Source: Phycisphaerae bacterium
Lineage (GTDB): Bacteria > Planctomycetota > Phycisphaerae > UBA1845 > PWPN01
Direction: 5' to 3'
DNA: 64,000 bases
Assembly (NCBI GenBank): GCA_012729395.1
Contig: JAAYDF010000284.1
Coordinates: 2,441-66,440, forward strand
This document shows positions 3,498 through 21,758 of the stretch, piece by piece. Position 1 is the first letter of the stretch. Every line of letters starts with the position of its first letter. A program made the position numbers and the translations under genes. The notes beneath the pieces are model-generated. The model searched no databases and was not told where the DNA came from. It worked only from the letters and a program-made list of their open reading frames with translations.

Positions 3498-4844
3498 TCA
3501 AGGCCCCGCGTTCGGCTCCGCACGGACGAGCGAGTCCGCGGGGCTGGTACCCCTCAGGACCGCCTCACCTTCGCGGGCCGGCGGGATGCCCAGGGCGTCG
3601 TAAGCCCATCGTACCGGGACAGCCAGCCGGAGATCGTTGACCGCCGCACTGAGCACGTCGGCCAGCTCGCGCAGATCGCGAGGCGGGTCCAGCGGTCGGC
3701 GGAAGAACGGTACGGGTACGCCCGGCCCAAACCGCATCCTCGTCAACGGAGCCAGCACGTCCCGCCGGATCGTTCGGGCCTCCTTGCCGAGATCGTCCTG
3801 CCGCAGGTCCAGTCGCACTTCGTTGTGGATCACCGCCGCCGCGTAGGTGCCCGTCTCGCCGCTGGTCTCGACGGTCAACGTCTGCCCCAGCCAGGCCTTG
3901 GATATCTCGCGATTGAAGAACGCACACATGCCCTCGTAGGGCGGTGAACCTGTGCCGTGGCCGGCCTCGAACATCTGCAGCTCGACCGCCTTGCTGAAGA
4001 TGGCCGACGCGTCCGTCCCCATCGCCTGCAACATGCTCAGAAGTTCGCGCTTTTCCTGAGCGGTGGCTGAGGGCTCGTAACGCGCCACCCGCACCGGCAT
4101 GCCGAACACCTCGGCAAAAACCATCCAGTCCTTCATCGCGAAGTGCTTGCCCAGGTACGACAACGCACTGACCCGCAGCAGCCCGCCACGCATCGGATGA
4201 CCCGAGACCGCGTGCGGCGTGTGCACGATGAATTTGGCCGGCGGCAGGGCGATGCCGTCGTACGGCGCCGACCCGGTCAGCACGCGCGGTTCACCCAACT
4301 CGCCAAACGCCACCCGCCCGAAATCCACCGGCACCACGTCCACCAGACGCAGCTCGCCCTTCTGAAAGTCCCACACATTCTCCGCCAGAGCGATGTTCCG
4401 CCCGAGAGCCAGCGACAGATGCTGCAGCGTCTCATCAAATCGGTCGATCCCCGCCAGCACTTCACGACAGTAGTCAGCCGCCTCGTCGGCAGGCCCGCGG
4501 TCCACGCCCTCGCGCACATCGGCCGCGGACTCGATCTGCCAGCGCAGCCCGGTCACCGCCCGCCGCCGCGTGTTCGCTACCGAATAGAGGTGGCCGTCCT
4601 TCTCCTCCATCTGCTCGAACAGGGCCATCGCCTGATCGACCGCGCCCTCGTCCGCTGCCCGCAGGATGTCCGCCAGCCTGCCGGGGGTCAGTCCGTCGGC
4701 CGGGTAATCCCGCCACCGATCCAGAGCCGACGGCCCTATCAGTAGCCCCAACGGCGGCCGAGACTCGCGACCGCGATACTGCTCAAAGCCAGTACGACGC
4801 TTCCGCCCACCCAAGGCATTCGCCACCCGTCTCGCCCAACTCAT
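3498..4844 (-). CDS. Phage portal protein, Mu gp29-like (DUF935)
   Basis: ORF 3498-5147 trimmed to the ATG at 4844 (MSWARRVANALGG), preceded by GAGGTGA. The body (GLTPGRLADILRAADEG..LFEQMEEKDGHLYSV..RRRAV, FAEVFGMPVRVARY, AAAVIHNEVRLDLRQDD) matches Mu-like portals. Confidence 0.85.
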   Translation of the reverse strand: MSWARRVANALGGRKRRTGFEQYRGRESRPPLGLLIGPSALDRWRDYPADGLTPGRLADILRAADEGAVDQAMALFEQMEEKDGHLYSVANTRRRAVTGLRWQIESAADVREGVDRGPADEAADYCREVLAGIDRFDETLQHLSLALGRNIALAENVWDFQKGELRLVDVVPVDFGRVAFGELGEPRVLTGSAPYDGIALPPAKFIVHTPHAVSGHPMRGGLLRVSALSYLGKHFAMKDWMVFAEVFGMPVRVARYEPSATAQEKRELLSMLQAMGTDASAIFSKAVELQMFEAGHGTGSPPYEGMCAFFNREISKAWLGQTLTVETSGETGTYAAAVIHNEVRLDLRQDDLGKEARTIRRDVLAPLTRMRFGPGVPVPFFRRPLDPPRDLRELADVLSAAVNDLRLAVPVRWAYDALGIPPAREGEAVLRGTSPADSLVRAEPNAGP

Positions 4845-4903
4845 CCGCTCACCTCGATTCTCCACTGCTCCATTCCTCATCTCCAATGCCGCATTCCCAA
4901 TGC

Positions 4904-6325
4904 CTACCAGATTCCTTCGCGTGCGAAGCGCAGGCTCGGCCCATGCAGCGCCTCGGGTCGGCCGCTCGCTTGACCCGCGGCCCGCACGGCCAGACACGCC
5001 GCCCAGAAGCGATCGCCGTGACCTCCCGATGACCGGTCGGCCTCGTATCGGCCCGGTCCGGCCGCGGTGACCGAGCGGCGAATCGAATGCCAGTTGTTGC
5101 GAATGGCCTCGTCCACCGGGATGCGGATGCGCCGATCCTCGACACACAGTCGCAGCCGCGTGGCCAACTCGTCCTTCAAGGCCGCCGTGAAAACCAGCGG
5201 CTCGACCCTCGATCGCCCGAACGATTCGACGGCTTCCTCGGCCAGGGCCAGCCCGATGCCGCTCGCATCGATGCAGCAGCGATGCACCTGCCGCAGAGCC
5301 AACAGGCCATGCAACGCCTCTCGCTGCTTGCGGAACGGCTCGCCGCGACTCTCGCGCACCCCGCGCGTCACCAGCAGCTTGCCACTCGCCTCAACCACCC
5401 ACAGCACCGTCAGATCGCGATATCGCCCGATGTCCATGCCGACGTACAGCGGGCCACGGCAGGAGGCGAGCGCGGCGATATCGAACACCTTGTCCAAGCT
5501 CGGGTCTTCGACCTCGGCAATCTGGGCGTGCGTCAGGAAGGCCGACGATTCATCCAGGAACTCGCAGCCGAACTCCTGGCGATAGAGCTCGTCGTCGTGC
5601 ATCGAGCGGCGGATCTGCTCCGGGTCGATCTCCAGGCCCGCCGTCACCGCGTCCGCCAGCGTCACCGTCGAGTGATGGAAGAGCGGGTTGTCGCGCAGCT
5701 CGGCAAACAAGTTGCCGCAACCGCGGGGCGTCGAGGCGACATCGAGCTCACCGTCGCCCCGCAACACGCTGGGGAACATCGCCGCCCAGATGGCCCGGTC
5801 GTCGCGGTGCATGGCAAACTCGTCAAGGAAAACATCGCCGGTAAAGCCCCGAGCGGTGGTCGGGTTGGCCGGCAAGCCGATCACCCGTACGCCGTTGGGC
5901 AGCTCGATGACCAGTTGCCGGAAGCTGGTCGTGCCCAGAAAACCGTCGCCGTGAAACTCCGCCGCCAGATTGAGCGCCCGGCAATGCTGCCGCGTTTTGA
6001 GCATCAGCTCGCGACTCTGGCGTTCGCCGGCCGACAGGAAGATCTGCGTCCGCCGCCGCTGCAATCCGCGCAGCAGACGACGAAGCGACTTCGTGAAACT
6101 CTTGCCGATCTGCCGCGACCAGCAACACCAACTGAACCTCGCCGTCGACAGCACGTCGGCCTGCTGGTAGCTCAGCAGAGGCACAATGGGCGACGAGGAT
6201 GGCTGGCAGTTCAGCAGGGGCTCAACGGGCGACGAGGACGCGGGTGTATCGGAGGCCGTGATGCCCGAATCGGCTACGTCTGCCTGCCGCGTGCCGTCCG
6301 CTGACGCTCCCGCCCCCATGTTCAT
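4904..6325 (-). CDS. Phage terminase large subunit, Mu gp28-like
   Basis: ORF 4904-6508 trimmed to the ATG at 6325 (MNMGAG). Walker A SRQIGKSF and Walker B DVFLDEFA. Nuclease acidic motifs GMDIGRYRD, IDASGIG and GHGDRFWAACLA are all intact. Confidence 0.85.
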   Translation of the reverse strand: MNMGAGASADGTRQADVADSGITASDTPASSSPVEPLLNCQPSSSPIVPLLSYQQADVLSTARFSWCCWSRQIGKSFTKSLRRLLRGLQRRRTQIFLSAGERQSRELMLKTRQHCRALNLAAEFHGDGFLGTTSFRQLVIELPNGVRVIGLPANPTTARGFTGDVFLDEFAMHRDDRAIWAAMFPSVLRGDGELDVASTPRGCGNLFAELRDNPLFHHSTVTLADAVTAGLEIDPEQIRRSMHDDELYRQEFGCEFLDESSAFLTHAQIAEVEDPSLDKVFDIAALASCRGPLYVGMDIGRYRDLTVLWVVEASGKLLVTRGVRESRGEPFRKQREALHGLLALRQVHRCCIDASGIGLALAEEAVESFGRSRVEPLVFTAALKDELATRLRLCVEDRRIRIPVDEAIRNNWHSIRRSVTAAGPGRYEADRSSGGHGDRFWAACLAVRAAGQASGRPEALHGPSLRFAREGIW

Positions 6326-6530
6326 GCCTCGTGACCAGGCTTGCCGTCGCCAACACGCCGCACCAGTGACAACGCCCCGACCGCCCCGTGACCCCGCGAG
6401 ACTGCCGGGGCGACGACACACGAGCGCGGTACACCCCAACGAGCCCGAAGCGCAAGCGCCGGGTTCAGTGGAGCGCCAGCGACCGTCCAAACGACGACTC
6501 GCATACACCGCTCACAGTGCAGTGCCACAC

Positions 6531-10827: not shown

Positions 10828-11331
10828 TCAGTAGCCGAACTTCTTCTTCAGCCTGCGAGCGATACTTCGCGGCACGAGTCGGCTCAGTCGGTTCACGTCG
10901 GCCATGCCCAACTCGACGATCTGCTTGATGTAGGTGCTCGAAGTCAGTGCATACTGATCGCGGGTGAGCAGGAAGATCGTCTCCACGCTCCCGATCGCCA
11001 GGTTGATGTTCGCCTGCTGCAATTCGTAGTGCAGGTCTACGTTGTCGCGGATACCGCGGATGATGATGTCCGCGTACGCCGACTGAACGAACTCCGCGGT
11101 CAGGCCTTCATAGGCCTCCACCCGGACACCCTTCAAATCTCCCACCAACTCGACCAGCATCTCGACGCGCTCGGCCGGCGTGAACAGAGCTTCCTTCTCC
11201 GGATTGTGACCGACGGCCACGATCAGCTCGTCCACCAGCTTGCTGCCGCGCTGGATGATGTCCACATGTCCGTTGGTCGGTGGGTCGAAGGTGCCGGGAA
11301 AGACCGCCCGTCGTCCAGTGTGATTGGGCAT
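10828..11331 (-). CDS. coaD: Phosphopantetheine adenylyltransferase
   Basis: 167-aa ORF. AVFPGTFDPPTNGHVDII (HxGH nucleotidyltransferase motif), IIRGIR and TSSTYIKQI are classical CoaD. Confidence 0.93.
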   Translation of the reverse strand: MPNHTGRRAVFPGTFDPPTNGHVDIIQRGSKLVDELIVAVGHNPEKEALFTPAERVEMLVELVGDLKGVRVEAYEGLTAEFVQSAYADIIIRGIRDNVDLHYELQQANINLAIGSVETIFLLTRDQYALTSSTYIKQIVELGMADVNRLSRLVPRSIARRLKKKFGY

Positions 11332-11421
11332 GACCTGTCCGCCTGAAAAACGCCGCCCGGGCTACCGCCCGGTCCATCGCGGGGCGATTCTAGCGACCGT
11401 CCCCACCCGCCTCAAGAAAAA

Positions 11422-11492
11422 AAGGTGTCAGGATGATTTTTCCGGGGGCGCAATCGCAGGTTGCGCCCCCGGAAAAATCATCCTGACACCTT
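11422..11492. repeat. Perfect extragenic palindrome (32-bp stem, 7-nt loop), GGTGTCAGG family
   Basis: Left arm 11422-11453 (aaggtgtcaggatgatttttccgggggcgcaa) is the exact reverse complement of 11461-11492. The loop is tcgcagg. It lies in the divergent coaD/cimA intergenic region. Confidence 0.9.
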
Positions 11493-11678
11493 CTTTCCTT
11501 GCCGTCCGCTCCGCGACTTGCTAGGATGGGCCGCATGGTAGACTGGCTACCCCTGGTTGCGACCGATAGTGACACCCCGGCACGTGCCTTTCGGGCGGGT
11601 GCCTTGGGCGCCATTCTGATTACTCGGCTCTGCAGTCGCGGCGGGTAGGGCGGTCCACATAGATGTCCAACGACCAGA

Positions 11679-11708
11679 GCCCTGCCCCGAAAAGGCAGGG
11701 CTTTTTTT
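11679..11708 (+). terminator. Rho-independent terminator-like hairpin with T7 tail
   Basis: Stem gccctgcc (11679-11686), loop ccgaaaa, stem ggcagggc (11694-11701), followed by ttttttt (11702-11708). There is no upstream plus-strand CDS. It lies 50 nt before the cimA ATG. Confidence 0.55.
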
Positions 11709-11757
11709 GCTGGCGGGCTCGGTGGCCCGGCCAGAAATCGAACCAAGAGGTACGGAT

Positions 11758-13410
11758 ATGCCCACCACCCGGGAACACATCGAGCTTTACGACACCACGC
11801 TACGCGATGGCACCCAAACCCAGAACGTCAGCCTCAGCCTGCAGGATAAGCTGCTGATCGCCCAACGGCTCGATGAGCTGGGTATCGACTACATCGAGGG
11901 CGGCTATCCGCTCAGTAACGCCCGCGATGCCGCCTTCTTCCGCGAGATCCGCTCGATGGGTCTGCGGCACGCCAAGGTGGTCGCCTTCGGCATGACCCGC
12001 CGCAAGGGCATCCGCGTCCAGGACGACGAGGGAATGAAGGCCCTCGTCGCCGCTCACACCCCGGCTGTCACGATCGTCGGCAAGAGCTGGGACCTCCACG
12101 TCCGCGAAGTCCTGCGCATCAGCGAAGAGGAGAACCTGGCCATGATCGCCGATTCAGTCCGCTTCTGTGCGCGAGGCGGACGCCAGGTCATCTACGACGC
12201 CGAGCATTTCTTCGACGGCTACGCGGCCAACTCACAGTTCGCTCTACGAACTCTCTTGGCCGCCCAGGATGCCGGGGCAAGCTGCATCTGCCTCTGCGAC
12301 ACCAATGGCGGATCGCTCCCCGAGCGCGTGGCCGAGGCTCTCGACGCGATTCGGCCACACCTGTCTGTGAGGATCGGTATCCACACGCACAACGACGCCG
12401 GCCTCGCCGTCGCCAACACCCTGGCCGCCATCTGTCACGGCGCCACCCAGGCACAGGGCACCATCAACGGCATGGGAGAACGGTGCGGCAACGCCGACCT
12501 CACCACCGTCGCCGCCAACCTGGCCCTCAAGCTCGACAAGAACGTCCTCGTCCCCGGCGGGCTGCAACGCCTCACCGAGATCAGCCGCTACGTCTATGAG
12601 GTCGCCAACCTCGTTCCCCACGATGCCCAGCCGTACGTCGGCCACGCGGCCTTCGCCCACAAGGGCGGTATGCATGTCCACGCCATCCGCCGCGTGACCC
12701 ACAGCTACGAACACACCAACCCGGAAACGGTCGGCAACTCCCGCCGCGTGCTCATCAGCGAGCTGAGCGGGGCCAGCGGTGTCGCCGAAAAGATCGGCCG
12801 AAAGTTCGACATCGCCCACGACAAGGGCCTCCAACGCCGACTCCTTCAGCGACTGCAAGAGCAGGAAGACTGCGGCTACGTCTACGAGTCCGCGGAGGCC
12901 AGCTTCGAACTCCTGTGCCGCCGTGAGCTGGGGCTGCACCACCCCTTCTGGCAACTCGGCCATTGGCGAGCCGTCGCCCTTCGCTCCGCCGCCGACACCG
13001 AGCCCAATACAGAGGTCATCGTCAAACTCAAAGTACGCGACCAATGGGAACATCACGTCGCCGAAGGCCATGGCCCCGTCGACGCTATGGCCACCGCCCT
13101 CCTCTGCGCTCTCAAGCCCCACTACCCCGACGTGGAGCATATCCGGCTCATCGACTACAAGGTCCGCGTCATCAACCCGCGAGCCGCTACCGCCGCACGC
13201 GTCCGCGTGACCATCGAGTTCCGCGACAACCAGACCCACACCCTCTTCAGCACCGTCGGCGTCAGCGAAAACGTCATCGAGGCGTCCTGGCAGGCTCTCG
13301 TGGATGGCATCGAGTACAAGCTGGCCAACGACGAGGACGGACGCCAAAAAACCTCCGCAAAGCCTCGCCGGCGGACGAAAAGGATGATCAACCTTGATGC
13401 GGACCTTTGA
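11758..13410 (+). CDS. cimA: Citramalate synthase / 2-isopropylmalate synthase family protein
   Basis: ATG at 11758 with AAGAGG upstream. ELYDTTLRDGTQ, HTHNDAGLAVANT and GERCGNADL, plus a C-terminal LeuA-dimer-like region. The ~550-aa length and N-terminus fit the CimA-type subgroup. Confidence 0.85.
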   Translation: MPTTREHIELYDTTLRDGTQTQNVSLSLQDKLLIAQRLDELGIDYIEGGYPLSNARDAAFFREIRSMGLRHAKVVAFGMTRRKGIRVQDDEGMKALVAAHTPAVTIVGKSWDLHVREVLRISEEENLAMIADSVRFCARGGRQVIYDAEHFFDGYAANSQFALRTLLAAQDAGASCICLCDTNGGSLPERVAEALDAIRPHLSVRIGIHTHNDAGLAVANTLAAICHGATQAQGTINGMGERCGNADLTTVAANLALKLDKNVLVPGGLQRLTEISRYVYEVANLVPHDAQPYVGHAAFAHKGGMHVHAIRRVTHSYEHTNPETVGNSRRVLISELSGASGVAEKIGRKFDIAHDKGLQRRLLQRLQEQEDCGYVYESAEASFELLCRRELGLHHPFWQLGHWRAVALRSAADTEPNTEVIVKLKVRDQWEHHVAEGHGPVDAMATALLCALKPHYPDVEHIRLIDYKVRVINPRAATAARVRVTIEFRDNQTHTLFSTVGVSENVIEASWQALVDGIEYKLANDEDGRQKTSAKPRRRTKRMINLDADL

Positions 13411-13455: not shown

Positions 13456-13677
13456 ATGACCTACAGGGGTCAAGTCAAGGGCGGCGTAGTGGTACTGGAT
13501 GGCGAAGTACACCTACCCGACGGCGCGAGAGTGCGCGTCGACCTGATCGATCAACCCGACAACGAGTCCGGCTCCCTCCTGGAGCGTCTCGGGCCGGTGA
13601 TCGGCAAGGCCGTCGGCCTGTCCGCTGACGCAGCCAGCAACATCGACCGCGACCTGTACGGGGACAGGAACGCATGA
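13456..13677 (+). CDS. Type II antitoxin-like small protein
   Basis: 73-aa ORF. MTYRGQVKGGVVVLDGEVHLPDGARVRVDLI is the beta-hairpin pattern common in VapB/DUF104-type antitoxins. Its stop overlaps an ATG (ATGA at 13674-13677), as in toxin-antitoxin operons. Confidence 0.55.
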   Translation: MTYRGQVKGGVVVLDGEVHLPDGARVRVDLIDQPDNESGSLLERLGPVIGKAVGLSADAASNIDRDLYGDRNA

Positions 13678-13681
13678 AGGT

Positions 13682-13747
13682 ATCACCGAGGCGTTGACCG
13701 GGGATCATCACTTTGACCAGGCCGGATTCGTGACCCTGCCCACATGA
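13682..13747 (+). pseudogene. C-terminal remnant of a PIN-domain (VapC-like) toxin
   Basis: This frame reads ITEALTGDHHFDQAGFVTLPT-stop, the conserved C-terminal tail of VapC toxins. The roughly 110 N-terminal codons are missing. The coupled ATG at 13674 gives only MKVSPRR-stop. Confidence 0.5.
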
Positions 13748-14213
13748 ACGATCCGGTGGCCCGCGACATGCCACAATCCGATTCTCTGACCCGCGACACG
13801 CCCGGCCTTCGAGCCTGAAGGGCTCGTTCTACCGCCCAGGCCGAGGGCCTGGGGAACCGGACTCCCCCAAGCCCCAGGCCTGAAAGGGCCGTCACCCGCG
13901 ACATCAATCATTCCGCACGGCGGTTCAACCGCCAGTCGCGTGCGTCCCGCAGAGCCGCGACCGTCAGGGAGCGGACCTTTCCCCGATGCGCCCAGGCCGC
14001 CGCAAACGTCACGACCCCATCGGCGGCCGACTCGGAGCCCCCCATCCTCTTGCTCGCCCACAGCCCCCCCCGCACTGCCCCGCCAAGCAACCGACAGAAT
14101 CATCCTGAACCCCTCTTCTTCGAGGCGATCCCTGAGCCGTCCGATGTGGGAGCGTAGAGGCGCTAATCGTTTACACCCCGCTTGTATGCTTCCACCTCGA
14201 TACCTGCCGATAT

Positions 14214-15200
14214 TCATCGCCTACATAGTGGCTGCACCGTCGAGCTGGACACAAAAGCTTGGTGCGCTTCGCGACTTGGGAGAATTGCGTCGGGACGATT
14301 CAGGTTAACAACGATTGTACCTGCACAGCAGTGGTGACGCTCTCTGCCCCGTGCAAAGGCCTCACCGAGGTGCGAGGGTTCAGCCGTTGGCGGGGTCTCG
14401 GAGCAGTGCTCGGAAAGCTGGGTGCAGGCAATCCATGCCTCCGGGAGCGTTTGACGGATCGCCCCAATGACTTCAGGGCGTGGCGTCCCATGCACGCCAC
14501 GGCCTATTGAGAACACAACAATCTCAGGCTTAACTGCTTCGCACAATGCTTTCGTGAAAGCTGTCATATCAGTCCGACCAGCCCCACCTCCATGGTGCGG
14601 AAACACAACTATCTGCGCAGTCATGTCCTTCCCTGATTCAAGAAGGCCGGAAAGGCCAACTTCGTCAAGATCGCCGGGGAGGAGTGCTATTGGTTGACCT
14701 TGATCCAGAAGTCGCACAACCGCGCTGATTGAGTTGGTGGTTACACGGCGTCCTTCTCGATCGCGACTTCCGGGTCCCCCACTGGCTAGGTACCGGCTGG
14801 GCCCGAGTATTTCGAGGCGGACACCGCCGTGATCGAACCGGCCAGTTGCGTCAGAAGTAAGTGAGACCTCAAAGGCAAGTTTCTGGGAGTTGTGTGCTCG
14901 ATCAAGTTCGTACCTGAGATCATCCCAGAGGGCGGATCGCTGCTTTGAGTCCGCGTTGATGTGGACGCGTCCAAGCGTGAACTCGGCGCATGCGAGAAGG
15001 TGGATCAATCCGCCAATGTGGTCTTGGTCCGCATGCGACAGGAGCACGATATCCACCCGCTCAATTCCTTGCTGCTTCAGGTACTGACGCAAGGAATCTC
15101 CACGCCCGGTGTCAATGACTACAATCCCGTCCTCGTCGATGAGGACAGCACTGTTTCCATGGCCAACATCGAGAATCGCCAGCCTGTGCCCATTCGGCAT
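14214..15200 (-). CDS. ComEC-type metallo-beta-lactamase-fold hydrolase (putative nuclease)
   Basis: 328-aa ORF, ATG at 15200 preceded by GAGGTGG. LAILDVGHGNSAVL, SHADQDHIGG (HxDxDH, aa 56-61) and FPHHGG. Cys-rich C-terminus (CTQLSEHC..HHCC). Confidence 0.75.
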   Translation of the reverse strand: MPNGHRLAILDVGHGNSAVLIDEDGIVVIDTGRGDSLRQYLKQQGIERVDIVLLSHADQDHIGGLIHLLACAEFTLGRVHINADSKQRSALWDDLRYELDRAHNSQKLAFEVSLTSDATGRFDHGGVRLEILGPSRYLASGGPGSRDREGRRVTTNSISAVVRLLDQGQPIALLPGDLDEVGLSGLLESGKDMTAQIVVFPHHGGGAGRTDMTAFTKALCEAVKPEIVVFSIGRGVHGTPRPEVIGAIRQTLPEAWIACTQLSEHCSETPPTAEPSHLGEAFARGRERHHCCAGTIVVNLNRPDAILPSREAHQAFVSSSTVQPLCRR

Positions 15201-15208
15201 AAACCACC

Positions 15209-15880
15209 TCAGGACGGTTCCCAGTTGCAGAAGTACAGTTCTTCGACCTTCTCGCAGCCAACATTCGCTCGCGCATGAAACCGATTGCCGGGCTTGACGA
15301 GCTTACGCACATCGCCAGGGAGGTCATCCACAAGCACTCGTATCTTCACCCTGGGGTTCCATCCTGGAACTACCACATGAAAGTATCCATCGTCTAAAGA
15401 AGCGTCTTCGACGCGCACCAGCGTCCTAGAGGCTTCACGGCTCGGCTGAAACTGTCCTTGGAATTCCTCTATGCAGCGCTCAAACCCCTGCCTCAAGGAA
15501 TCTGGGTTCATGTCCGCGCTCTGAAGGAGCACCGGTATAAACTGCCGGCGGCTCCTCATCAGAGTGACATCCCAGTCGTTGTAGGCGGTGCAAAGCACGG
15601 CCGGAAGTTGAGCCTTGTAACACTCTACGACGAGTTCGTCTCCGTCGAATCGGGCGTAGTTACGCATCCTGAGATGGTAGTCACAGAGCACTGCATCTGC
15701 TTCGGCATGCCGCACATGCTGCACGAATCTCTCAGGCGTTTTAAGTTCCAAAAGGCTGGCCTCCGTGGCAGCGCTCACCCTCAGATCCTCAACCGCCCAC
15801 CCATAGGCTTCCCTTGCCGCTGGGTCGTCGTCGATGATGCATACCCTGTGGATCGACCTGCCTGCAAGTTGAAGCGGCAT
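15209..15880 (-). CDS. Receiver (REC)-like domain protein with uncharacterised C-terminal module
   Basis: 223-aa ORF. IIDDD (D17-D19), D67 in AVLCDYHL and T98 in AVLCTAY match the REC acidic pocket, phospho-acceptor and Thr. The conserved Lys position is not obvious. The last ~80 aa match no family I recognise. Confidence 0.65.
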   Translation of the reverse strand: MPLQLAGRSIHRVCIIDDDPAAREAYGWAVEDLRVSAATEASLLELKTPERFVQHVRHAEADAVLCDYHLRMRNYARFDGDELVVECYKAQLPAVLCTAYNDWDVTLMRSRRQFIPVLLQSADMNPDSLRQGFERCIEEFQGQFQPSREASRTLVRVEDASLDDGYFHVVVPGWNPRVKIRVLVDDLPGDVRKLVKPGNRFHARANVGCEKVEELYFCNWEPS

Positions 15881-15883
15881 GGC

Positions 15884-17950
15884 TTACACTCCAAGAATAG
15901 GAAGCTCCACGAAGATCTCTGCGCCACCAAGCGCACCGTGCTCGATCGCGTCTACCTGCCCTCCCATGTCCCGAACAGCATCCCGAACGATGGTGAGGCC
16001 CAGTCCCGTTCCGTTCCTCCGCGTTGTTTGCCCGGGCAGCCAAATGTCGCTCTTGCTAATCCCTTCAATTCCTGGCCCATTGTCGAGGATTGACATGGTG
16101 AGGATATCAGCATTTACAGCTGTCCGTACAACCAGCATTCGCTTCGTTGTGCTGGCCCGCTCAAAAGCAGCCAGGCTGTTGTTGATGAGATTGGTAATAA
16201 TCGATTCCACTGCTGCCTGGCTTGCTCGCAGATAGGGTGAGCCGGCGACTAGGTCCATTCTGACCACAACGTCACGACCCCGCAAGAAGGGCTCAAACGT
16301 GTTAAGGATTCCCGAGATCACGTCGTGAATATCCACTCTGGAAGCACGACGCTTGTCGTGATCAACGAGCTTGAGCGTCGCGTCGCCTAGGACCGCTAAG
16401 CGCCCCGTGGCTTGACTAATCGATGCTACCGGTTTCTCAAGCTTTTTGACATAGAACTCGGCAGATTCCTCCTTTGCACGTCGCTCGATAGTCATGACTG
16501 CTTGGCGGATGATCTTCAATGGGTTTCCGCTGGATTCATGAGCGAAGGTAACGGCCGTTATCCCAGCCGTGCTCAAGGTGCGATACAACTGTATTTCCTT
16601 CCGCAGTTGCTGGGCTTCACGCTCGCGTGAACGATCGTAGGCTTCTGCTGCTGCCTGGAGAGCCGGCCTTACGGCCTTGGGCGTGTTTTCGATTGCCTGG
16701 TCCAAGTCCCTCTTTGCCTTCCGCGCTCTCTTGGGTGCCGCCGCCCGTTCGCTCGCACGCCGCTTCTCTGCCTCCTCCAACCTTTTTCGTGCCATCCATT
16801 CCATCGCATCCTGTGCAAAGGACTTGAGCCCAGCAAAAGCCTCCCCCTCAATAAAGCCAGAACGGTCTGTCTTTTCCACCAACACATCCGATGTGTCGCA
16901 GAATCTGACGCGACCGATTGAGGTGTTGGTCCCCGGCCGCTCCTCCGGACTTTGGACTCTTCGCAGATCTATGTCAAGCCAATCATGCCCTGGACTGCCA
17001 TAAGGTTCAACCTTGATACCATTCCGATAGAGATGTACGCCGCCGAACTCCTGGAGCCATTCCCGGACTTCACCGATGCTTGACCGCCTAGTCGAGAAGG
17101 TGCTGTGCTGAAGCAGAAACACCCACAGATCGAATTGCGTGGCCGGGCACTCATACAACTTGTGCTGACGCTGTGAAGTCAAATCATCGTGAGTTGCCGC
17201 AAACACTCGCTTTCCTTGCCAGTCAAGCACGGACGCGCGAGCATGTCCTCGACTGTTGACGCGAGCACGTAGGTGATACTCCGCATCATCGAAGTAGCGT
17301 TTCCGGACGAGATCCTCCAAATCCGAAAACTCAGGAGCCGCTAGGGTTGGCTTGAAGCCGCGGGGATCATCACCAAAGGGATCGGCAAGCAGGATCAGGG
17401 ATCGGGCAAGCCGTTTAACATCCATCCTGCCAATCTTGGTTCTCAAATCTTCGATAAGAATTTGAGTGCCAGGATGCACATCCGAGGCTCGGTGGCTCTT
17501 TTCGATTGTGAGTGCTACGTCATCGATAACCTCGACGTCTTCGTATTCGTCCCAATCGATGAGGAGATCGTACTGTGTCGCCTTTTCTTGCTTTGGGCGC
17601 GTGGTCAGAAGAACTCTTGCACCCATGCGCAGAGCCGCCAGTCGGCCAAGGCCCTTGCTTCCCACGGGTATCCGGCCGAGGCGCGTTGGCGAACCTGTGC
17701 TCTTCTCGGAACGTCCCAACACAAGCCAGCCCCGCTCGATTCCGTTAGCATCCATTCCATCGCCATTATCGACTACGCGCACCGAACCGCCAAGTTGGTC
17801 CGTGTTCATTAGTTCAACCGTACATTTGCGCGCGTCGGCATCGTATGCATTCTTGACCAGTTCCAAAAGCCCTTTGTCGGGGCTAGGGTTGAGTTCTTCG
17901 CCTAGTCGTCTCAGAATGTCCGGGGCAAATCGTATCTGGACTGTGCTCAC
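15884..17950 (-). CDS. Fusion of MutL/MORC/Hsp90-type GHKL ATPase with a HisKA+HATPase_c histidine kinase
   Basis: 688-aa ORF whose GTG start overlaps the MTase stop (GTGA). N-terminal ELVKNAYDADA, VVDNGDGM and GSKGLGRLA. A coiled-coil linker, then FAHESSGNPL (H471), NLINNSLAAF, ILDNGPGI and GTGLGLTIV. No TM or PAS segments seen. Confidence 0.75.
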   Translation of the reverse strand: MSTVQIRFAPDILRRLGEELNPSPDKGLLELVKNAYDADARKCTVELMNTDQLGGSVRVVDNGDGMDANGIERGWLVLGRSEKSTGSPTRLGRIPVGSKGLGRLAALRMGARVLLTTRPKQEKATQYDLLIDWDEYEDVEVIDDVALTIEKSHRASDVHPGTQILIEDLRTKIGRMDVKRLARSLILLADPFGDDPRGFKPTLAAPEFSDLEDLVRKRYFDDAEYHLRARVNSRGHARASVLDWQGKRVFAATHDDLTSQRQHKLYECPATQFDLWVFLLQHSTFSTRRSSIGEVREWLQEFGGVHLYRNGIKVEPYGSPGHDWLDIDLRRVQSPEERPGTNTSIGRVRFCDTSDVLVEKTDRSGFIEGEAFAGLKSFAQDAMEWMARKRLEEAEKRRASERAAAPKRARKAKRDLDQAIENTPKAVRPALQAAAEAYDRSREREAQQLRKEIQLYRTLSTAGITAVTFAHESSGNPLKIIRQAVMTIERRAKEESAEFYVKKLEKPVASISQATGRLAVLGDATLKLVDHDKRRASRVDIHDVISGILNTFEPFLRGRDVVVRMDLVAGSPYLRASQAAVESIITNLINNSLAAFERASTTKRMLVVRTAVNADILTMSILDNGPGIEGISKSDIWLPGQTTRRNGTGLGLTIVRDAVRDMGGQVDAIEHGALGGAEIFVELPILGV

Positions 17951-19428
17951 AGCTCATCGCTCCACCAAGGCAGTCGCCCTAGCGCTGACACGGTCAGGTG
18001 ACGACATCGAATTGACCTATCGAGCCAAGATGTTGTCTCGTGCCTCTGAAGGACGCGAACCAACCTAAGACAGAATCCCAGGGTACGCTTCTTTGGAACA
18101 AGCACCAGGAGGTGATTTTCGACAGCCACCGGTCTTGTTCCGGCAATCACAGTGGCGATGGCCCGATGCTTATCCCCGGGGCGCGAAGTTCTTCTCACGG
18201 CTACGAATGGAGGCAATATGGTCCGTCCCGCGAATCTCCGCCTTCCCGGGAGAGACCTGAGCACCTTCCAAGCTGGCAGTCCGCGCGAGAACGCAAATTC
18301 GCGCCATGGCCCGCGATGCGGATCCCGGTAGTCGACCACAGGGCCCACGCAAACGTCGAAGTAGTCGCCTACTGTAGCGGAATGAGTGCCACTCGGGATG
18401 CTCCAGGAAGTGCGGTACGTTGATCGGCCAGTGCTACGAACGATGAGGTCGAGAAGGAAAACGTCGACATCCGCCCACCTGTCAAAACGACCGTAGACGC
18501 GAACAGAGTTAATCCAGGTGCGAGCTTGGACGATATCCCTCCATTTCTGATAGCGGGTACCGCACCTGAGGACATCCGGCAGAATCGCCACGACACGGGC
18601 TCCACTCTTGGCTTGTCGGAGGCATGTTTCCACGAATACCGCCGCCGAGTTGACAGACCCGGAAGCCCACTTGCAGCCGGGAGGGGCATGCATCGCCGTG
18701 TAAGGGGGGTTCATCACGATGTGGGAAGCTTTGGCAATTGCCCCGTCATCTCTCATCCCGCACCCAGTCCGCAAATGCGGAAAAAGGTCGGTGATGCATG
18801 GCAGCACTGGACTGCGTGGACGGATGCCCCGCGCAACTAGCGTCATCACGAGCCGAATCTTGGCAGCTCGAACAAACTCATCGTGGAGATCGTATCCGAT
18901 GATGCGGCTGCCCCAGAGTCTGAGCGTTCTCTCGAATCCCGTGGCAACAGGTAGGTGCCGAGCGCACTCGATGAGCAGATCACCCACGCCACAGGCAGGA
19001 TCGAGGATGACCGAATCCTCCGACAACGTGGATGCCGCTCCAGCAAGAGCTCGACGTGCGAGGCTTGAGCCCGTAAAGAACGCACCAGCCGACCGAACTT
19101 GCTCCGAGGGCACAAGACGATGGATCTCCTCCCTCGCTTGCCCGTCCAGCGCCGCGGCGAGTCTCTCGCGAGACGCTGGCGTCAAAGGCTCCACCAGTGA
19201 CTCTCCGAGGGTACGGCGGAGATCGACAAGATAGGGCTCGAACGCTTCCACTTGAGGCCTTATGCTCCAGTCAACTAGTACTACCCGGCCTGCGTGACAC
19301 GAAAAACGTGGGAGCACTGCCACCCCTGCGCAGCCACGCGTGGCCGAGAGCATCCACATTTGAGTGCGTCTATTTGTACCATAAAGAGCTGCGACCACAA
19401 GCGGAGCCCGACTGCCCTCCCTGGCCAA
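17947..19428 (-). CDS. N6-adenine DNA methyltransferase (gamma-class, Eco57I/TaqI-like)
   Basis: 493-aa ORF. ILDPACGVGDLL (motif I) precedes IVMNPPY (motif IV, aa 238-243), followed by a long C-terminal putative target-recognition region. The listed start is a TTG at 19428. The ATGs at 19359/19353 are alternatives, so the start is uncertain. Confidence 0.75.
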   Translation of the reverse strand: MAREGSRAPLVVAALYGTNRRTQMWMLSATRGCAGVAVLPRFSCHAGRVVLVDWSIRPQVEAFEPYLVDLRRTLGESLVEPLTPASRERLAAALDGQAREEIHRLVPSEQVRSAGAFFTGSSLARRALAGAASTLSEDSVILDPACGVGDLLIECARHLPVATGFERTLRLWGSRIIGYDLHDEFVRAAKIRLVMTLVARGIRPRSPVLPCITDLFPHLRTGCGMRDDGAIAKASHIVMNPPYTAMHAPPGCKWASGSVNSAAVFVETCLRQAKSGARVVAILPDVLRCGTRYQKWRDIVQARTWINSVRVYGRFDRWADVDVFLLDLIVRSTGRSTYRTSWSIPSGTHSATVGDYFDVCVGPVVDYRDPHRGPWREFAFSRGLPAWKVLRSLPGRRRFAGRTILPPFVAVRRTSRPGDKHRAIATVIAGTRPVAVENHLLVLVPKKRTLGFCLRLVRVLQRHETTSWLDRSIRCRHLTVSALGRLPWWSDEL

Positions 19429-19622
19429 GGCGCTGTGAGACGGTCGGAGTAATGGTTCGCGCCGCCGTGCACGCCTTGGTCCAGCAATCCAGACAAACGA
19501 CAGTGGAGTATCGCCGGTTGCGGACTTTCAGTCCAGACGGTGCAACTCCGGGAAGGGTGGGGGGGCAGTTAGGCGAGAGTTTGGGGAGCGATGCGGGGGT
19601 CGAGGCCCGCCTTCGCGGCCTC

Positions 19623-21758
19623 CTACGCCCCGGCCGCGACCGACTCATCCGCAGGCAGGGCCGCGGGCTTCGCCGCCTCCGATGCAAGAACTCGGATCGC
19701 CTGAAGCAGGGCCGCCCGGTCGATCGGTTTGCCCATGAACTCGTCGCAACCCGCCGCAAGGCAGCGCTGCCGCTCCTCAAGCAACGCGTGGGCCGTCAAG
19801 GCAATGATCGGGCTCCGGTAACCTTCGCGGCGAAGGGTCCGCGTTGCTTCGTACCCGTCCATCACCGGCATCTGCATGTCCATCAGGATAACGTCAAACG
19901 GCCGGCCAGCTTGCTGAGCGTTCAAAGCACGCTCCACCGCCTGCTCGCCGTTCTCCACGACGACCACGCTCGCGCCGGCCTTCTTGAGAATGAACGAGAT
20001 CAACCGCTGGTTGTCAGGACCATCCTCCGCCAGCAGGATCCGGGCAGACAACCGCTCACCCGATGAAGCCGGCAGAGCCGATGACTGACCGCCTTTCGCC
20101 CGACAGTGCGCCAGGTGTGAACCGACCAAGGCCACGCCCGTCAGATCCCCTGCCGCCACCGTCAAACGAAACCGCGCGCCAGCGCCCGGCGTCGATTCCA
20201 CCAGTACCAGATCACCCCCCAGCATCTGGGCCAGCCGCTTACTGATGCACAGGCCCAAACCCGTCCCCCCGTAACGACGAGTGGTCGAGGCGTCCGCCTG
20301 CGTGAACTCTCGGAACAACTTCTGCGCCTGCTCCGAAGATATCCCGATGCCCGTGTCCATCACGTCAAACTGCAACAAGGGACGCGGCGTGTCCGCATCC
20401 GCCAGCCGTACCAGCAAACGAATACCCCCGCTATCCGTGAATTTGATCGCATTGCTCAACAGGTTCGCCAGTATCTGCCGTAAACGCGTGGGGTCGGTCT
20501 CTACCGTCTCGGGCAGGTCGTCCAGATACTCAACCTTGAACGTCAACATCCGGTCACGCAGCCCCGCGTGAGCCAGTGACTCGGCACTCGCCACCAGCTC
20601 GAAAGGCGAACAGCGAATGCGCTCGACCATCAGCCGGCCGGCCTCGATCTTCGAAAGATCAAGGATGTCGTTGATCACCGTCAGAAGATGCAGCCCGTTC
20701 CGCTGGATCGCCAACACGGCCTCCTGCCGGTCCGCCTCCGCCAACTGCCCGTCCAGCAAGTTCTCCGAAAAACCCAGAATCGCAGTCAACGGCGTGCGGA
20801 TCTCGTGGCTCATGTGCGCGACAAAACGAGTCTTCGCGTGGTTCGCCGACTCCGCCGCCGCCTTGACCGTCTCCAGGTCGGCGATCGTCATCAGCAGCTC
20901 TTCGTGTTGCGCTTTGAGATACTCCTGCTGCGCTTCCAACTCCATATTCTTGTAGCGAAGGAGCTCCGCCTGCTTCTCCAGCTGCTTCTCCGCCTCTTTG
21001 CGGTGGGTGTGGTCCATCGCGATTTCGCAGCGAACCATGCGGCCGTCGGGCCAACGAATCACTTGGTCGATGCAGTGGAACCATCGCCCGGTCCGGCGAT
21101 TACAGAAGTCCCAGGTGTAAGACTCGCCCGGCCGGTCATGAAACAGCCGACCGTTCGTACAAAACGAGCAAGGGGCCTCCAACCCCTGAAGCGCCTCGTA
21201 GCACTTCCGCCCGGTCACGTCGCCAAAGTACCTGCGAAACGTCTCGTTGACATAAAGCAGCTCGTAAGTCTGCGGATCACACGCGTAGACCGGTTCGCCA
21301 AGGCTCTCCAGAATCGCTATGAGCTGCTTGTGTGAGGCCTCCACCTCATCATCGAGCCGCCGCCGCTCCGCCGCGTGACGGGCTTCCGCTAACACCAACT
21401 CCACCCGGTAAGGCAGACCGGCCCAAGCGGTTTCCGTCCGTACCACGCAGTCGGCGGCCCCGGCGCCCAGGATCGCCGCCACCTCTTGGGGCGTCGCCCA
21501 GTTCGCCAGGATCACCACCGGAAAGACATGCTTGGGATCCTGAGGGGCAATCAGGTCCGTTCCCCGACCATCCGGCAGAATCAGGTCCGCCATGACCAAG
21601 TCCGGCAAACCTTCCCGCAGGCTCTCCCGGGCCTCGCGAAGACTGCCGGTCAGGATCAGACTGCAACGCTTGGTCAGCGGAGCCAGCGCCAAGCGCAACG
21701 CCTCACGATCCGCCTCGCTTTCCACAGCCAACAAAATGACACTCGGCCCGCCTTGCAC
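19623..21758 (-). CDS. Hybrid sensor histidine kinase/response regulator (REC-PAS-HisKA-HATPase_c-REC)
   Basis: 711-aa ORF with a GTG start. N-terminal REC ([11 protein letters not shown]), H-box [14 protein letters not shown]-boxes DTGIGI and GGTGLGL, C-terminal REC ([12 protein letters not shown]). Confidence 0.85.

Follow-up and report, generated by a model that had tools for sequence, protein, structure and literature searches.

A cassette of four minus-strand genes occupies positions 14214-19428 of a 64,000-nt stretch of DNA (hereafter the window) from a metagenome-assembled genome of a Phycisphaerae bacterium (Planctomycetota). The genes, which are all co-oriented and tightly coupled, encode a predicted N6-adenine DNA methyltransferase, a histidine kinase carrying a MORC-type GHKL ATPase module as a fusion, a receiver protein and a predicted nuclease of the metallo-beta-lactamase (MBL) fold, at the positions given in a preliminary description of the locus. 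A defence function of the cassette is likely, in line with the restriction-modification (R-M)-like role that had been proposed, and we put at roughly 60% the probability that it is a self-contained, horizontally mobile, R-M-like defence system of a MORC-GHKL/histidine-kinase superfamily that includes the anti-phage system Ambrosia and the HEF_HK/Response_reg_2 gene pairs. We consider it most plausibly an MBL variant, as yet unnamed, within this Ambrosia/HEF_HK class of two-component/R-M hybrids. The preliminary description had presented the operon as undescribed, which is too broad, since the kinase/receiver pairing has been reported beside R-M genes (PMC8011034) and the HNH-bearing relative Ambrosia has been validated (10.1101/2025.09.30.679545). 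The class itself is thus already described and only the MBL-bearing variant remains unnamed; our literature searches did not find a named MBL-bearing version.

To follow the cassette in other genomes, iterated profiles were made for the four proteins and all open reading frames (ORFs) were scored in 86 loci. Loci whose kinase is at least 40% identical to the window kinase are referred to as the close clade, and four of these are cut by a contig end. The order kinase-receiver-MBL was present in 47/47 of the close-clade loci that are not cut. The methyltransferase gene lies directly upstream and co-oriented in 31 loci (six of them closely related Gemmatimonadota sharing their flanks), it is divergently oriented in one, and an adjacent copy is absent from the remaining 15, which are mostly cyanobacterial. 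The four loci of this last type that were inspected have unrelated genes upstream (EF-G, a solute-binding protein, DUF3160) or no identifiable gene. Many loci show a 4-nt overlap between the methyltransferase stop and the kinase start. Because the triad recurs in all 47 loci and in many phyla, its arrangement goes far beyond chance, bearing out the expectation of conserved synteny across phyla; and because 15/47 loci lack an adjacent methyltransferase, this enzyme is a frequent but dispensable partner of a unit, kinase-receiver-MBL, that does not vary. A census of the flanks (124 flanking proteins, 181 families) revealed no fifth conserved gene, none of the families being recurrent.

The fusion kinase has more than 2700 homologues in the protein collection, and the best 120 of these, from unrelated sources and phyla, are nearly all about 688 aa long and 59-65% identical to it. 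In a scan of one genome per species, kinase relatives were found in at least 583 genomes, from Planctomycetota, Gemmatimonadota, Latescibacterota, Acidobacteriota, Actinomycetota, Cyanobacteriota and Bacteroidota, and also from Pseudomonadota, Verrucomicrobiota, Chloroflexota, the candidate phyla radiation (CPR), Streptococcus and Thaumarchaeota (Nitrosopumilus). The cassette is carried by a conjugative plasmid of Burkholderia, where an integrase and ParDE lie close by, by a Hymenobacter plasmid, adjoining ThiF and patatin genes, and by a Pseudanabaena plasmid, and integrases, transposases, MmeI-type R-M, TIR and HsdR genes occur sporadically in the flanks. Phage genomes yielded a single partial kinase relative, so the system is not notably phage-borne. 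Cultured carriers include Burkholderia sp. IDO3 (plasmid p1), Hymenobacter volaticus, Albitalea terrae, Amnibacterium setariae, Brevundimonas bullata, Anabaena azotica and Nostoc paludosum. In the Hymenobacter volaticus locus (L096; NZ_CP095070.1, 1-5261) a ThiF-family adenylyltransferase, two hypothetical genes and a patatin-like phospholipase lie directly upstream of the cassette; these may correspond to a CBASS-like operon, which would make that region a small defence island.

In the window, the composition of the cassette is foreign, which supports the horizontal acquisition suggested in the preliminary description. The GC content at third codon positions (GC3) is 0.57-0.64 for the four cassette genes vs 0.73-0.82 for five neighbouring genes, and the GC profile in 1-kb steps has a low of 0.55-0.59 across 14-19 kb, the rest of the window lying at about 0.64. 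The GC counts made earlier on single 60-nt lines (26/60, 31/60 and 33/60 in the cassette, 42/60 in cimA) are exact. The gene junctions were also re-derived and proved correct: the methyltransferase TGA and the kinase GTG overlap within CTGTGA, the receiver ATG comes 3 nt after the kinase TAA (TAAGCCATG), and the receiver TGA is contained in a Shine-Dalgarno-like GAGGTGG, with the MBL ATG 8 nt downstream. Scans for promoters and terminators gave no signal exceeding shuffled expectation. When the flanking genes were used to search for an empty site, the contigs recovered were all of the same strain (100% identity) and their ends were scattered, not at the island edges.

The 688-aa protein, the AbrB-like core gene product of the cassette, is a soluble MORC-type GHKL ATPase module fused to a histidine-kinase core. 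Pfam places HATPase_c_3 at residues 26-142 (1e-19) and HATPase_c at 579-684 (5e-17); no transmembrane or classical sensor domain was found in the fusion, which has the MORC-type ATPase module instead. Its N-terminal motifs are ELVKNAYDA (30-38), VDNGDGM (60-66) and GSKGLGRLA (97-105), and its C-terminal motifs FAHESSGNPL (469-478), NLINNS (587-592), DNGPGI (623-628) and GTGLGL (647-652). Among 50 homologues, the ATPase residues E30, N34, D37, D61, G63, G65 and G97-G102 are invariant, as are the kinase-box residues H471, E472, P477, N587, N591, D623, G625, G627 and G647-L652. An AlphaFold2 model calculated from 50 homologues (predicted local distance difference test, pLDDT, 78.7) gave the domain limits listed in Table 1. 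Foldseek matched about 450 N-terminal residues of this model to the ATPase modules of MORC2, SMCHD1 and Hsp90/TRAP1, and about 240 C-terminal residues to the cores of CpxA, ZraS and HK853; the best PDB sequence match of the GHKL domain was again MORC2 (E 0.002). The label "MORC-like GHKL::histidine kinase" given to the protein is therefore correct, in view of the Foldseek matches and the invariance of the ATPase motifs and kinase boxes.

The receiver protein has a REC domain at residues 1-140, with IIDDD at 15-19 (D17, D18, D19), D67 and T98; in 27 homologues no exchange of D18 or D67 is seen, and T98 is almost invariant. Of the features of a canonical two-component pair, the kinase boxes are invariant, D17, D18, D67 and T98 are present in the receiver, and the position of the beta5 Lys is taken by Q121. 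The match to Pfam Response_reg is below the gathering score (7e-4), and in a Foldseek search with the whole model (AlphaFold2, pLDDT 94.2) solved receiver domains were matched over the REC half only, with a TM score of about 0.7. In the same model, residues 151-221 form a beta-barrel of five strands, the third and fourth being separated by a short helix; the barrel may be OB-like, judging from strand order alone, and a helix-turn-helix or other recognisable DNA-binding domain is absent. The receivers form a discrete family, comprising 315 clusters at 50% identity (E<=1e-30), the listed members being mostly 215-235 aa long and matching end to end.

The 328-aa protein is predicted to be a ComEC-type MBL-fold hydrolase and the nuclease effector of the cassette. 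It matches Pfam Lactamase_B (1e-12) and NCBIfam ComEC (2e-12), and its best PDB sequence matches are the MBL domains of ComEC/Rec2 (4e-10). The motif SHADQDH (residues 55-61) includes the HxDxDH signature (56-61), and the metal ligands H56, D58, D60, H61, D177, H202 and H203 are conserved in at least 95% of 42 homologues. PADLOC matched the protein to the MBL effectors of Lamassu (LmuA, 1e-8), DRT (4e-8) and Avs1a. The ComEC/Rec2 MBL domain is the closest solved relative, with an HxDxDH-type metal motif common to both. The ComEC MBL domain has been reported to degrade the non-transforming DNA strand. The window protein, at 328 aa, is without the channel parts of the approximately 800-aa ComEC chains and sits in a kinase/receiver operon, and a competence function is unlikely.

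The first gene of the cassette is predicted to encode an AbrA-like, gamma-class N6-adenine DNA methyltransferase. Motif I (DPACGVGDLL, residues 143-152) and motif IV (NPPY, residues 240-243) are present in the longest ORF (493 aa), to which all residue numbers of this protein refer, and D143, G147, G149, D180 (the motif II acid), N240, P241 and P242 are conserved in at least 95% of 35 homologues. The match to Pfam N6_Mtase is weak (4e-5) but above the gathering score, and PADLOC gave MTase_II (4e-12) and a partial match to mad2 (1e-11). The ORF from TTG described earlier exists, but its start is uncertain: gene callers take ATG 19359, which gives 470 aa, and the alignments of homologues begin only at about residue 98 of the 493-aa ORF. 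The start is likely to be ATG 19359 or later. Every motif listed in the preliminary description was found at its residue in the four proteins, and Pfam, PADLOC, NCBIfam and the structure models agree with its domain assignments, including the terms MORC-like and ComEC-type.

Beyond the close clade, at 24-29% kinase identity, both GHKL domains of the kinase are retained and its partners differ. In 13 loci (L051, L053, L054, L055, L057, L059, L062, L065, L071, L075, L080, L082 and L086), kinase and receiver are accompanied by an HNH protein of about 210 aa in the position of the MBL gene, and in most of them an N6-methyltransferase lies up- or downstream. Their hosts are Pseudomonas, Methyloversatilis, Chloroflexota, Gemmatimonadaceae, Bacteroidota, Paceibacterota (CPR) and Christensenellaceae, so that the range of the kinase-receiver-HNH core, which is the Ambrosia-type architecture, exceeds by far the Gammaproteobacteria reported for Ambrosia and includes Betaproteobacteria, Chloroflexota, Bacteroidota and CPR. 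In the Pseudomonas locus of this group (L075; methyltransferase-kinase-receiver-HNH), the kinase is 25% identical to that of the window and collinear with it end to end (E 2e-53), and the methyltransferase is 38% identical (E 7e-97). In Streptococcus mitis, Stenotrophomonas and alphaproteobacteria, a C5 cytosine methyltransferase accompanies the kinase, and the receiver is extended by a long fused domain; these long C-terminal domains, considered as candidate nucleases, received no Pfam or PADLOC assignment, and the REC regions gave weak PADLOC matches to PDC-M60B/C and SduA. In two Nitrosopumilaceae loci (L063, L064) the genes after the kinase encode, in this order, a REC protein of canonical type (193 aa; Response_reg 3.5e-10), an unassigned protein of 199 aa and a C5 methyltransferase, so the superfamily crosses the domain boundary. 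The effector follows the kinase clade: the MBL gene is present at every locus of at least 40% kinase identity and at no locus of 29% or less. Such modularity of effector and methyltransferase is typical of defence systems. Two Bacteroidota loci (L067, L069) are a distinct, HerA-linked variant, in which a HerA-like ATPase (DUF87/HerA_C, 3e-28) and two further genes precede the kinase, and the gene after it encodes a receiver-fused protein of 399 aa, which alone touches Pfam Response_reg_2.

Several observations weigh against our reading of the cassette. Its flanks in the window are housekeeping genes, with no defence island, and the 15 methyltransferase-less loci belong on this side as well. 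For the C-terminal barrel of the receiver, a PDB sequence search returned nothing and Foldseek matched no solved structure, and the beta5 lysine position, mostly K or R in homologues, is Q121 in the window protein. The link to Ambrosia was made through architecture and through a Pseudomonas fluorescens locus of that architecture (L075), not through Ambrosia's own sequences, and in this one Pseudomonas locus inspected an XRE gene was not seen upstream. In Ambrosia itself, phage grown on cells carrying only AbrA are still sensitive to the system, and its authors favour transcriptional control via the receiver (10.1101/2025.09.30.679545). Finally, the MBL protein has weaker matches to Apyc1 (PDB 7u2r, 7e-4) and to CbpE (1.5e-5), and its precomputed Pfam annotation includes Anti-Pycsar_Apyc1, marked as weak.

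These last matches raise the question of whether the MBL protein could be a small-molecule phosphodiesterase, acting on cyclic nucleotides as Apyc1 or on phosphorylcholine esters as CbpE, the cassette then serving nucleotide signalling, counter-defence or addiction. We regard this as very improbable: nuclease-type domains of ComEC/Rec2 match far better (see the PDB and NCBIfam values above), and in the sister clades an HNH endonuclease takes the place of the MBL protein in the operon, which argues for a nuclease slot. It could also be argued that the genes perform ordinary cytoplasmic two-component signalling of host physiology, with a metabolic or RNA-processing MBL protein, an unrelated or epigenetic methyltransferase and no defence. 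The RefSeq labels of the cassette genes ("sensor histidine kinase", "response regulator", "MBL fold metallo-hydrolase"), the housekeeping genes around the window cassette and the fact that the founding HEF_HK members were noticed through their up-regulation in planta would all fit this explanation, but we consider it improbable, as a MORC-type ATPase stands where a transmembrane or classical sensor domain would be expected, all the variants remain associated with DNA methyltransferases and nuclease modules (HNH, MBL), the distribution is patchy and suggestive of horizontal transfer (60-65% identity across phyla, foreign GC3), and the homologous architecture of Ambrosia has a validated anti-phage phenotype.

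How would the four proteins work together? In the scheme that we propose, the MORC-like ATPase module, possibly with the coupled N6-methyltransferase, would engage DNA and detect invading DNA or infection. The CA domain would then drive autophosphorylation of H471 and phosphotransfer to D67 of the receiver, as the intact catalytic motifs suggest. The phosphorylated receiver may act directly on the ComEC-type MBL phosphodiesterase or bring it to nucleic acid, and the nuclease activity would thereby be switched on against the invader; the same type of MBL domain is the effector in the PADLOC models of Lamassu, DRT and Avs1. Direct licensing is favoured because the receiver is without a DNA-binding domain and is strictly co-inherited with the MBL protein, their genes being 8 nt apart. 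In the MBL clade the methyltransferase would be an accessory, marking either self or target, and not obligatory. That methylation marks self DNA, as proposed in the preliminary description, is doubtful in view of the loci without an adjacent methyltransferase and of the AbrA-only result, and since methylation fails to protect phage in Ambrosia, an R-M logic that simply separates self from non-self may not apply. Licensing of a nuclease by a phosphorelay is a reasonable hypothesis; the complete scheme, in which a MORC-type clamp reads the state of DNA, His-Asp phosphotransfer follows and a REC-OB receiver physically switches on a ComEC-type DNase, with the methyltransferase dispensable as in the cyanobacterial three-gene form, is put forward tentatively.

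The main rival to this scheme is a transcriptional gating like that of Ambrosia, an anti-phage system of Pseudomonas aeruginosa composed of AbrR-AbrA-AbrB-AbrC-AbrD (preprint 2025, 10.1101/2025.09.30.679545). In that study, AbrR is described as a HipB-like XRE protein, AbrA as an N6-methyltransferase, AbrB as a histidine kinase/HSP90-like HATPase, AbrC as a REC-wHTH protein (wHTH, winged helix-turn-helix) and AbrD as a Type IV-like HNH nuclease; defence needs every gene and the receiver Asp (D60A abolishes it), and expression, followed with reporters in place of AbrA or AbrD, is induced by infection (10.1101/2025.09.30.679545). Applied to the window, the kinase would sense infection and the phosphorylated receiver would induce otherwise silent methyltransferase and MBL nuclease genes, the nuclease acting on DNA modified by its own methyltransferase (Type IV-like logic) and not being switched allosterically. 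The induced AbrA and AbrD reporters, the D60A loss and the non-protective methylation make this the working model in Ambrosia, and the window methyltransferase and kinase are homologous to those of the Ambrosia-type locus L075. Against this model, in the window cassette the C-terminal half of the receiver is a five-stranded beta-barrel and not a wHTH, sensor and effector would be co-transcribed from one tightly coupled operon, and an XRE/C-protein gene is absent. Moreover, methyltransferase-less triads exist, and a methylation-dependent nuclease therefore cannot be the general rule. We judge transcriptional gating of the window cassette to be rather unlikely.

If the MBL cassettes are defensive, Ambrosia, the single validated example, becomes part of a large modular superfamily that spans bacteria and some archaea, in which a single type of sensor, the MORC-like kinase, is combined with exchangeable nucleases (MBL, HNH, fused receivers) and methyltransferases (N6, C5, none). 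If the direct scheme is true, no earlier case would be known in which a phosphorelay licenses an immune nuclease directly, and the cassette would exemplify DNA surveillance by a MORC module in bacteria. The MBL clade, widespread but unstudied, is well suited to resolving the mechanism, and it is the better one for asking how the signal reaches the effector because its receiver, being without a DNA-binding domain, separates transcriptional from direct activation. The natural methyltransferase-less form suits tests of the contribution of methylation, and the cassette is a tractable bacterial model for DNA sensing by MORC-type ATPases.

Table 1. Features of the cassette and of its surroundings, in window positions or protein residues.
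Feature	Position	Strand	Description
Methyltransferase	17947-19428	minus	Longest ORF, 493 aa from TTG 19428
Fusion kinase	15884-17950	minus	688 aa, GTG start
Kinase GHKL domain	aa 1-190; 17381-17950	minus	Bergerat-fold motifs ExxxNxxD, DxGxG, GxxGxG
Kinase middle alpha/beta domain	aa 200-365		AlphaFold2 model
Kinase two very long helices	aa 370-475		AlphaFold2 model
Kinase DHp helices	from H471		AlphaFold2 model
Codon of H471	16538-16540	minus	Predicted phospho-accepting His; H-box HESSGNP fits HisKA HExxxP pattern
Kinase CA domain	aa 536-684		AlphaFold2 model
Receiver protein	15209-15880	minus	223 aa
MBL hydrolase	14214-15200	minus	328 aa
Low-GC, low-GC3 island with the cassette	14000-19430		Host-like genes on either side (cimA, coaD; classical hybrid histidine kinase, nfi)
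Hybrid histidine kinase	19623-21758	minus	REC-PAS-HisKA-HATPase_c-REC; directly upstream of the cassette; host-like GC3 0.77
73-aa and 169-aa ORFs	13456-14217		Below the MBL gene
169-aa ORF	13708-14217	minus	Start overlaps the MBL stop as ATGA
cimA	11707-13410	plus	
Palindrome	11413-11501		About 90 nt, intergenic between coaD and cimA
coaD	10828-11331	minus	
Terminase large subunit	4904-6508	minus	PHROG 5909, 2e-42
Portal protein	3498-5147	minus	PHROG 113, 5e-96

One gene in the surroundings of the cassette (Table 1) could be taken for a member of it. This classical hybrid histidine kinase gene lies only about 195 nt from the methyltransferase ORF, but its product is unrelated to the cassette kinase. 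On the other side, the 73-aa and 169-aa ORFs had been described as a decayed toxin-antitoxin pair, for which we found no support: neither matches any Pfam family. Both were rejected as members of the system, the 169-aa ORF not being conserved beside other cassettes; it is predicted by public gene callers, a counterpart downstream of the MBL gene is absent in every related locus, and it is probably spurious or lineage-specific. An XRE/C-protein regulator gene was not found beside the window cassette. The public annotation of the source genome calls the cassette products merely "histidine kinase" and "MBL fold metallo-hydrolase". Farther away, about 8 kb from the cassette and separated from it by housekeeping genes, lie two prophage-like packaging genes, for a portal protein and a terminase large subunit (3498-6508), which may belong to an intact prophage, a remnant or a gene-transfer-agent-like element. 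Between coaD and cimA, a blastn self-match revealed a palindrome that is nearly perfect (91% identity to its reverse complement).

The cassette was compared with the named systems. As in the BbrUII/HgiDII-family Type II restriction enzymes and the prokaryotic MORC/paraMORC ATPases of R-M systems (Iyer, Abhiman & Aravind 2008, PMC2292703), an N-terminal HATPase_c_3 GHKL domain occurs in an R-M context, but the C-terminal half of the window kinase is a histidine-kinase core where the BbrUII/HgiDII enzymes have a nuclease, so that cleavage would be delegated, via the receiver, to the separate MBL protein. Residues 12-184 of the kinase match NCBIfam NF050001 (BbrUII/HgiDII) at 8e-19, and membership of that family was ruled out since the score is 67.6 bits against a cut-off of 550 and the alignment covers only profile positions 9-186 of 659. 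MADS, the methylation-associated defence system, was also ruled out (MAD2 methyltransferase model NF047738, 18.8 bits against a cut-off of 720; no match to other mad proteins), as were 6A-MBL and Lamassu, for which the PADLOC and NCBIfam matches are generic or far below threshold. The analogies drawn earlier with BREX/Pgl and Detocs are thematic, none of their models being among the PADLOC matches. BREX/Pgl membership was excluded on this ground and on the type of the kinase, which is His and not Ser/Thr. Detocs (DtcA-DtcB-DtcC) uses a His-Asp phosphorelay for anti-phage signalling to a receiver-controlled effector. The Detocs model was not matched, and the window cassette, with its single receiver protein and no PNP domain, does not belong to that system either; the TPR sensor, the buffer receiver (DtcB) and the PNP effector (DtcC) are absent from it, and what it has in their place is a sensor module of the MORC-like type, together with a methyltransferase and an MBL effector as a separate protein.

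Much closer are the HEF_HK and Response_reg_2 families. Bellieny-Rabelo et al. (2021, PMC8011034) defined these Pfam families (PF19191 and PF19192) from pairs of HATPase_c_3+HATPase_c kinase-like and receiver-like proteins, which they found enriched beside genes of R-M systems (C5 methylases and HNH_2 above all) and related to paraMORC ATPases; the study was computational only, and its text mentions neither phage, nor an MBL partner, nor a test of phenotype. In both the HEF_HK pairs and the window, a soluble HATPase_c_3+DHp+HATPase_c protein stands by a divergent REC protein and methyltransferase or nuclease genes, with both predicted sites, His and Asp, conserved. Neither PF19191 nor PF19192 was matched at E<=0.1 by the kinase or the receiver of the window; the HerA-linked L067 is of the only relative type tested that touches these models, with weak matches to HEF_HK (6.6e-5) and Response_reg_2 (2e-5).

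Ambrosia is the nearest validated system. The gene order is alike in the two (N6-methyltransferase, HATPase_c_3+HATPase_c kinase, REC protein, nuclease), the window methyltransferase occupies the position of AbrA, directly upstream of the kinase, and a phospho-acceptor Asp is common to both receivers (D67 in the window protein, D60 in AbrC). The published AbrB hidden Markov model has a threshold of 500 bits. The window cassette departs from Ambrosia in three features: its effector is a ComEC-type MBL protein and not a Type IV-like HNH nuclease as AbrD is, its receiver ends in a beta-barrel where AbrC has a wHTH, and no XRE gene corresponding to AbrR flanks it. The kinases of the MBL clade are set apart as well, with at least 40% identity among themselves and at most 29% to those of the HNH-type loci, and whereas Ambrosia has been reported from Gammaproteobacteria only (10.1101/2025.09.30.679545), the MBL clade to which the window cassette belongs extends over many phyla.

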